Assembly: GCF_003018255.1 (NCBI RefSeq)
Contig: NZ_CP027440.1
From: Escherichia coli
Lineage (GTDB): Bacteria; Pseudomonadota; Gammaproteobacteria; Enterobacterales; Enterobacteriaceae
DNA: 64,000 nt
Direction: 5' to 3' (one strand)
A program made the position numbers and the translations under genes. A model generated the notes under the pieces. It was given only the letters and a program-made list of their open reading frames with translations. It was not told where the DNA came from and did no database searches. Positions 4,770 to 5,699 of this stretch are shown here, in pieces. Position 1 is the stretch's first letter. Every line of letters starts with the position of its first letter.

Positions 4770-5699
4770 ATGGCGCGTTACGATCTCGTAGACCGACTCA
4801 ACACTACTTTTCGCCAGATGGAACAAGAGCTGGCTGCATTTGCCGCTCATCTTGAGCAACACAAGCTATTGGTTGCCCGCGTGTTCTCTTTGCCGGAGGT
4901 AAAAAAAGAGGATGAGCATAATCCGCTTAATCGTATTGAGATAAAACAACATCTCGGCAACGACGCGCAATCGCTGGCGTTGCGTCATTTTCGCCATTTA
5001 TTTATTCAACAACAGTCCGAAAATCGCAGCAGCAAGGCCGCTGTCCGTCTGCCTGGCGTGTTGTGTTACCAGGTCGATAACTTTTCGCAAGCAGCGTTAG
5101 TCAGTCATATTCAGCACATCAATAAACTCAAGACCACGTTCGAGCATATCGTCACGGTTGAATCAGAACTCCCCTCCGCGGCACGTTTTGAATGGGTGCA
5201 TCGTCATTTGCCGGGGCTGATTACACTTAATGCTTACCGCACGCTCACCGTTCTGCACGACCCCGCCACTTTACGTTTTGGCTGGGCTAATAAACATATC
5301 ATTAAAAATTTGCATCGTGATGAAGTCCTGGCACAGCTGGAAAAAAGCCTGAAATCACCACGCAGTGTCGCACCGTGGACGCGCGAGGAGTGGCAAAGAA
5401 AACTGGAGCGAGAATATCAGGATATCGCTGCCCTGCCACAGAACGCGAAGTTAAAAATCAAACGTCCGGTGAAGGTGCAGCCGATTGCCCGCGTCTGGTA
5501 CAAAGGAGATCAAAAACAAGTACAACACGCCTGCCCTACGCCGCTGATTGCACTGATTAATAGGGATAATGGCGCGGGCGTGCCGGACGTTGGTGAGTTG
5601 TTAAATTACGATGCCGACAATGTGCAGCACCGTTATAAACCACAGGCGCAGCCGCTTCGTTTGATCATTCCACGGCTGCACCTGTATGTTGCAGATTAA
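4770..5699 (+). CDS. tus: DNA replication terminus site-binding protein Tus, 309 aa
   Basis: ORF 4758..5699; start [11 protein letters not shown] at ATG 4770; recognised Tus sequence. Confidence 0.93.

Follow-up and report, generated by a model that had tools for sequence, protein, structure and literature searches.

The convergent tus and fumC genes of Escherichia coli overlap at their stop codons, and the end of tus carries a conserved hairpin of the fumC transcript

The window analysed here comprises 64,000 nucleotides of the Escherichia coli chromosome (contig NZ_CP027440.1) and contains tus and fumC in tail-to-tail orientation. A 3-kb piece around these two genes, annotated as rstB, tus, fumC and fumA (the last as "fumB" in some strains), matched 5424 of 5426 complete E. 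coli genomes, and the gene order at tus/fumC is identical in MG1655. Gene names were taken from the RefSeq annotation of near-identical E. coli genomes; the listed open reading frame that contains tus runs from 4758 to 5699 on the plus strand. The two genes meet as follows:

4770..5699, plus strand: tus coding sequence, 309 aa, DNA replication terminus site-binding protein (RefSeq annotation of near-identical genomes)
5696..7099, minus strand: fumC coding sequence, 467 aa, class II fumarase (open reading frame and RefSeq annotation)
5696..5699, no strand: TTAA common to the tus and fumC stops (read from the sequence)

At 5697-5699 lies the tus stop codon TAA; fumC stops at the TAA that 5696-5698 form on the minus strand. 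The junction reads ...GCAGATTAACCC, and GATTAACC spans it with both stops inside its TTAA. This overlap had been pointed out in the initial annotation, together with the same TTAA at two further convergent pairs and zero spacing at a fourth. The sequence bears out all four junctions, for tus/fumC along with the open reading frame coordinates:

2206..2209, no strand: TTAA common to the folM (plus) and ydgC (minus) stops (sequence)
59104..59107, no strand: TTAA common to the purR (plus) and punR (minus) stops (sequence)
44372..44377, no strand: ydhK stop TAA at 44372-44374 (plus), then the sodC stop as reverse complement of 44375-44377; zero spacing, TAA followed directly by TTA

At tus/fumC, folM/ydgC and purR/punR the stops share a [CT]TA[AG] tetranucleotide, whereas at ydhK/sodC they abut without overlap. 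The ydhK/sodC junction lies inside a tandem 8-nt duplication, CTTAATTA CTTAATTA (44370-44385), that is also present in strain NGF1; a single copy of the repeat would leave the sodC frame without a stop at that point.

NGF1 is near-identical to the window over the tus region, and some genes further away differ between the two. Here, lhr (49328-53944, 1538 aa) and uidC (11916-13181, 421 aa) are intact, while in NGF1 lhr is in fragments and uidC is frameshifted. Conversely, rsxD is split in the window into two open reading frames (29383-29700 and 29670-30440) by a 1-nt deletion near 29650 relative to NGF1, either a frameshift or a sequencing error, and rsxC (27256-29382) measures 2127 nt against 2223 nt in NGF1, a 96-nt difference. 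An Rfam scan of the whole window found no family at any of the four junctions; its sole match was the enterobacterial sRNA family STnc550 at 57691-58081 on the minus strand (388 bits), between cydH/ynhF and purR.

On the opposite strand, TAA and TAG appear as TTA and CTA; two genes that both have to end can therefore be packed no more tightly than by [CT]TA[AG]. These four tetramers were named as the ones allowed for convergent stop-stop overlap by Lillo and Krakauer 2007 (PMC2174442), who counted 58 convergent overlaps in E. coli with a modal overlap length of 4 bp. The -4 state as a class is a known non-random spike. The tus/fumC arrangement is exactly like these 4-nt overlaps and shows no structural difference from them; the earlier work is statistical and treats neither tus/fumC nor embedded hairpins individually. 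Among the 11 complete convergent pairs in the window, three stand at -4 nt and one at spacing 0, and the remaining seven have spacers of 35-145 nt. For comparison, we sampled three 50-kb pieces of MG1655 away from the window, and their 22 convergent pairs in 150 kb included one at -4 (yfeH/ypeB), one at 0 (cueR/ybbJ) and one at +2 (ypdC/fryA). The hypergeometric P for window versus sample was about 0.1 (0.115 with inclusion of a twelfth pair that is truncated at the window end), and a binomial test of the window excess gave P 0.01-0.09, varying with the background rate. The clustering of tight convergent pairs is a mild local excess that was selected post hoc. The tus/fumC overlap itself is an ordinary, already catalogued result of gene packing.

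For a comparison across the family, the tus locus was retrieved from 80 Enterobacteriaceae species, and the ends of the Tus, FumC, FolM and YdgC reading frames were mapped. In 79 of the 80 species tus and fumC are convergent and at most 35 nt apart, and with orthologue identities of 69-98% for Tus and 86-99% for FumC these are two genuine protein-coding genes tail to tail. The gap is -4 (TTAA or TTAG) in Escherichia, Citrobacter, Salmonella arizonae, Kosakonia, Kluyvera, Phytobacter and Pseudocitrobacter, 0 (TGA followed by TTA) in Enterobacter, Lelliottia and Leclercia, and -11 in Klebsiella and Raoultella; gaps of -14, +10 or +35 are rare. At folM/ydgC the -4 overlap is kept as TTAA, TTAG, CTAG or CTAA, with two exceptions among related loci that have both genes. 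Within the species, 5422 of 5426 complete E. coli genomes carry an 81-nt segment across the tus/fumC junction with at least 95% identity, and the junction is no strain accident. From the family-wide tight gaps and the four tetramers seen at folM/ydgC it follows that the tail-to-tail packing is older than the Enterobacteriaceae. Drift of the tetramer among variants that supply both stops is as expected if selection on two protein ends holds the overlap in place, as this comparison of sequences would suggest.

Where stop codons overlap, each 3' untranslated RNA is made from the coding strand of the partner, and 3'-end formation must therefore be encoded inside the partner gene. The same was noted for this class of genes as a whole, for which terminators must sit in the partner coding sequence and Rho-independent terminators were predicted in only 20% (PMC2174442). 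It had been proposed at the outset that, with no intergenic terminator, transcripts must read into the opposing gene. Transcripts do enter it, as follows from the missing intergenic DNA and from a published Rho termination region, published dsRNA and a published purR 3' end. The assumption of a missing terminator held only in part: a scan of 4600-7300 for canonical promoters and terminators gave nothing at the junction and three terminator-like matches elsewhere, a chance-level number, but 3'-end signals embedded in the partner coding sequence had been overlooked. On the tus side of the junction, the features that bear on read-through from fumC are:

5406..5406, minus strand: Rho termination region, 290 nt beyond the fumC stop and antisense to tus (MG1655 fumC end 1685185; PMC7815308)
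5536..5615, minus strand: C-rich, G-poor stretch of fumC read-through RNA (C/G 1.62, 13 YC dimers), candidate Rho loading region
4957..5227, no strand: p19-captured, RNase III-generated dsRNA cluster in tus (U00096.2 1682470-1682740, class "3' & Full"; PMC7373196 Tables S1 and S3)

For minus-strand transcripts, Adams 2021 (PMC7815308 supplement 2) mapped the Rho termination region opposite tus to MG1655 1684895 (Rho score 5.6, P 5.8e-7). We transferred this coordinate to window position 5406; tus has equal length in both strains, without indels. Reads upstream and downstream of the site, counted in 800-nt windows, were 83 and 16 in untreated cells and 36 and 39 with bicyclomycin (PMC7815308). 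Read-through of fumC inside tus hence rises on Rho inhibition and is real, though limited in untreated cells to 16 downstream for 83 upstream reads. The C/G ratio of the read-through RNA is 1.62 at +81-160 and 1.44-1.47 at +241-360, against a median of 1.0 and a 95th percentile of 1.74 in the window; these stretches fit Rho loading without being extreme. The same data set places Rho regions on the strand opposite folM, at MG1655 1681110 (585 nt beyond the ydgC stop), and opposite ydhK, at MG1655 1723937 beyond sodC, and antisense regions were the largest class overall (51.5%; PMC7815308). Elsewhere in the window, Rho regions lie antisense to slyA (plus strand, 40584-40631) and to lhr (minus strand, 53944-53995).

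The RNA that passes into tus is also seen as duplex. Huang et al. (PMC7373196) captured tus dsRNA duplexes of 21-22 nt with p19, and one published duplex strand of this cluster matches window positions 5033-5053 exactly. Placed on the window, the published duplexes put the dsRNA hot spots 470-650 nt into tus. In the same study, total-RNA sense/antisense values were 26.6/12.3, 22.0/12.5 and 8.6/19.8 for tus and 103/3.9, 126/3.1 and 76/4.3 for fumC (PMC7373196). From these values it follows that the more strongly transcribed fumC sends antisense RNA over tus and that the reverse flow is small.

Neighbouring pairs with conventional spacers behave in the same way. For slyB/slyA, spaced by 46 nt, and lhr/grxD, spaced by 50 nt, Rho termination was mapped within the partner gene (PMC7815308), and since these pairs read into their partners too, the stop overlap is not the cause of read-through. 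Overlapping transcripts are moreover the rule genome-wide, with 276 of 370 convergent operon pairs overlapping by a mean of 286 nt (Conway 2014, PMC4161252). The suggestion that the overlap drives read-through thus failed, and the stop overlap itself probably is not a specific source of antisense interference.

Beyond its stop codon, the fumC transcript contains a stem-loop that is written into the last ~60 nt of tus:

5641..5686, minus strand: conserved stem-loop of the fumC transcript, beginning 10 nt after the fumC stop (RNA folding)

Its core of 12 bp (CAGGUGCAGCCG / CGGCUGCGCCUG) extends to 15 bp in this strain and encloses a 16-nt loop, in tus the arms encode QAQP and RLHL, and the tail that follows reads GGUUUAUAAC. 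Folding gave a dG of -27.2 kcal/mol for the hairpin alone and of -29.2 kcal/mol for a 73-nt fumC 3' segment, the latter with z -3.45 versus dinucleotide shuffles. In a gap-free alignment of the 80 species, 14 hairpin pairs were 88.7% paired as compared with 18-48% in slid controls, and six pairs had changed on both sides; the observed values were reached in 0 of 500 shuffles, although these statistics overstate independence because the species share ancestry and conserved Tus residues are encoded in both arms. The two strands do not support the structure equally well. The 12 core pairs are 96.8% paired in minus-strand RNA (including 119 G.U pairs) versus 85.5% in plus-strand RNA, and the mean dG across species is -25.0 versus -19.1 kcal/mol, with the minus-strand form more stable in 74 of 80. 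The stronger pairing on the minus strand therefore points to the fumC transcript, rather than tus mRNA, as the molecule that would be under selection. A literature search, swamped by "TUs" in the sense of transcription units, found no earlier description of a conserved strand-specific fumC hairpin, and we regard it as a small addition of a known kind.

An inverted repeat at this place might also be a side effect of the Tus sequence and of codon usage, or it might act in tus mRNA or as DNA rather than as an element of the fumC RNA. The arms encode conserved residues, so part of their conservation is protein-level, and CAG, GCG, CCG and CTG are common E. coli codons. Against this stands the behaviour of sites that are free to vary without changing Tus. 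At third positions across the 80 species, fourfold-site entropy drops from 1.74 bits in the flanks and 1.59 in the loop to 0.56 in the arms, one third of what the same gene tolerates in loop and flanks. An arm alanine site is exclusively G or A, which on the minus strand become C or U, each able to pair with the facing G. Some compensations even cross the two codes, in that a change from proline to serine or alanine in one arm is matched by a synonymous arginine-codon change in the other. Finally, an invariant U.G pair and the 119 wobble pairs would turn into C.A mismatches in tus-sense RNA. We hence consider it very unlikely that the repeat is anything other than a fumC RNA element.

A more serious alternative takes the hairpin as a true, if unconventional, intrinsic or bidirectional terminator. 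Most fumC transcription would then end ~55 nt into tus, antisense RNA would be marginal, and the premise that a terminator is lacking would be wrong in substance. The stem is indeed long, GC-rich and conserved (12-15 bp, dG -27 to -29 kcal/mol) and runs on into GGUUUAU, untreated cells lose about 80% of reads across the junction (PMC7815308), and terminators that act in both directions between convergent E. coli genes and depend on a hairpin are known from a preprint (10.1101/2022.10.23.513370). A proper U run is absent, however, with 3-4 U in the 10-nt tail here and a mean of 3.4 T in 10 nt over the 80 species, and the terminator scan did not call the structure. Bicyclomycin moreover restores the downstream signal, lifting the downstream/upstream counts from 16/83 to 39/36, and the published bidirectional terminators are described as Rho-independent; the ratio of about 1, on low counts, argues for little termination by the hairpin alone. 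The dsRNA hot spots lie far beyond the hairpin, and the Term-seq table of PMC7815308 lists no 3' end there. From the poor U tract, the Rho-sensitive read-through and the position of the dsRNA hot spots it follows that the hairpin is no canonical intrinsic terminator, and that it works as an unconventional one seems unlikely to us. The best-supported reading is that it shields the mRNA after Rho termination further downstream and perhaps pauses polymerase too. This protective role is our inference, since one published Term-seq table (PMC7815308) held no mapped fumC 3' end at the hairpin; a search of the TERMITe supplements for fumC or tus 3' ends likewise gave no match.

Alternatively, the junction might be a regulatory excludon. 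Loss of the spacer would then have been selected so that strong fumC transcription, by SoxS, MarA or Rob induction or by fumA read-through, represses tus, by colliding polymerases and by RNase III cutting of the sense-antisense duplex, and Tus levels would thereby respond to oxidative stress. In published data from RNA-seq, Rho-region mapping and dsRNA capture, the transcripts do overlap as in a convergent excludon, and the p19 cluster with its exact duplex match shows the RNase III-processed duplex. All four pairs of the window belong to the MG1655 "excludome" (ExcludonFinder, PMC12288877), with tus-fumC as a convergent excludon in at least 50% of 58 RNA-seq samples; the antisense:sense ratio in tus is 0.5-2.3 with a dsRNA cluster classed as 3' overlap (PMC7373196), and the tight junction is conserved family-wide. 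Other points speak against this reading. The definition used by the tool makes any pair with overlapping coding sequences an excludon, and the listing is therefore near-automatic, almost by construction; Rho lowers read-through to ~19% (PMC7815308); and pairs with spacers behave alike. RNase III cleavage had no clear link to protein abundance in the dsRNA source study (PMC7373196), a literature search for tus expression under paraquat gave nothing usable, and constraint on the C-termini of the proteins explains the conservation of the junction. A switch selected as such thus appears distinctly improbable.

The end of the tus transcript is less conspicuous. In the plus direction, the features next to tus are:

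5700..5779, plus strand: start of the tus 3' untranslated RNA (80 nt), lying within fumC codons, candidate Rho loading site
4737..4759, plus strand: TerB replication terminator site; 10 nt separate its end from the tus start codon

Over the 80 nt that follow the tus stop, the C/G ratio is 2.0, with 18 YC dimers, and exceeds 1.74, the 95th percentile of 80-nt windows here. Judged by this composition, Rho termination of tus transcripts on the C-rich RNA after the stop is plausible. A hairpin at 5775-5819, followed by T5-6 in fumC, was rejected as a tus terminator candidate. Its region folded with z -0.57, the hairpin could be recovered in only a minority of the 80 orthologous sequences, and the T run corresponds to conserved Lys-Lys codons. 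At the other end of tus, TerB reads AATAAGGATGTTGTAACTAAAGT, with G at position 7 where K-12 has T. We take TerB to overlap the autoregulated tus promoter, and antisense transcription from fumC would presumably arrive from its permissive side. TerB would thus be a downstream target of fumC antisense transcription if the latter were unterminated.

A 3' end of the same design, with an embedded hairpin inside the partner gene, is found for purR:

59114..59145, plus strand: purR 3' stem-loop, 12 bp (59114-59143), inside the punR coding sequence (folding and published 3' end)

The 56-nt purR 3' segment has a dG of -23.2 kcal/mol and z -4.93. A Term-seq 3' end for purR lies at MG1655 1738907/8 and was classed as "primary, antisense" to ydhB, now punR (PMC7815308 supplement 1). 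The 61-nt sequence flanking it matches window positions 59095-59155 exactly, so that the end falls at 59145, 2 nt beyond the stem and, inside punR, 38 nt past the purR stop. In folM/ydgC, a hairpin is predicted for the ydgC transcript at 2109-2154 on the minus strand, 52-97 nt past the stop and inside folM. The ydgC 3' region was 78.6% paired, and its inner stem showed some compensatory changes across 40 related sequences, in a test that is biased because the structure was derived from the window sequence itself; the embedded ydgC hairpin may serve as a lead only. A folM 3' structure was rejected, with 62.8% paired versus 23-50% in slid controls and many broken pairs.

Taken together, we consider it probable that tus/fumC is an ordinary stop-stop overlap of two real genes, that the fumC 3' end is made through the embedded hairpin and Rho, and that the antisense RNA is mostly a by-product. 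Once reached, TTAA would be kept by selection on both protein C-termini. The 3' end of fumC is probably formed in two layers. The stem-loop, 10-55 nt after the fumC stop and written into the QAQP...RLHL codons of tus, most likely guards the 3' end of the fumC (and fumA-fumC) mRNA from exonucleases, and it may pause or partly stop RNA polymerase. Rho-dependent termination follows a few hundred nt further into tus. The fraction of fumC transcription that reads on is antisense to tus and pairs with tus mRNA, and the resulting dsRNA is cut by RNase III. The weakly transcribed tus in turn runs into fumC and probably ends by Rho on the C-rich RNA past its stop. The present sequences establish the overlap, its age and the conserved hairpin, and the published data establish Rho dependence, antisense RNA and dsRNA; the function of the hairpin and the way in which tus transcripts end are deduced. 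That the antisense RNA is a by-product, mostly tolerated rather than used as a switch, is a judgement on our part.

Reportedly, Dar and Sorek found in 2018 that Rho-dependent termination is coupled with trimming back to a stable stem-loop, and Ju and co-workers are said to have described in 2019 bidirectional, hairpin-dependent terminators between convergent genes, with coincident 3' ends at a shared hairpin and independent of Rho. With the Rho and trimming systems (PMC7815308), the fumC 3' end has in common a bicyclomycin-sensitive region, antisense to tus, and a hairpin upstream of the termination zone; it differs in that no 3' end is mapped at the fumC hairpin in the Term-seq table examined. 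Like the bidirectional terminators (Wang 2022, 10.1101/2022.10.23.513370), the structure is a hairpin where convergent units meet and has no canonical U tract. In contrast, those terminators are reported to be Rho-independent and lie between genes, whereas the fumC hairpin lies inside a coding sequence, shows a Rho-sensitive signal and is stronger on one strand. Rho sensitivity and strand asymmetry argue against the fumC hairpin as a bidirectional terminator of the type ascribed to Ju. As compared with convergent excludons (PMC12288877, PMC4161252), the 3' transcript overlap is alike, but exclusion of one gene's expression by that of the other, an excludon's defining claim, is still putative for all four pairs.

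Overlapping stops, and the overlap of 3' transcripts that comes with them, belong to the textbook picture of compact bacterial genomes, and the four pairs of the window had already been catalogued. As a long shot, we may speculate that the last 60 nt of tus are doubly selected, for the Tus C-terminus and for the fumC hairpin, with hairpin and Rho setting how much fumC-driven transcription enters tus. Under strong fumC induction, as in superoxide stress, or where Rho is limiting, invading polymerases and antisense RNA would then lower tus mRNA and could also arrive at TerB, at the tus promoter, from its permissive side and displace Tus. If true, such an invasion of TerB would tie the redox or TCA-cycle state to replication-fork trapping. 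We consider this scenario very unlikely.

The added value of the present analysis is modest, namely that the codons of the tus C-terminus double as a conserved, strand-specific RNA hairpin of the gene next to it. With its suppressed synonymous change and compensatory substitutions, the tus/fumC hairpin is a clean natural example of dual coding. An "absent terminator" deduced from missing intergenic DNA can hence mislead, and synonymous-site conservation should be taken with caution as a protein-level signal. The same caution applies to codon-optimising or recoding tus or fumC.
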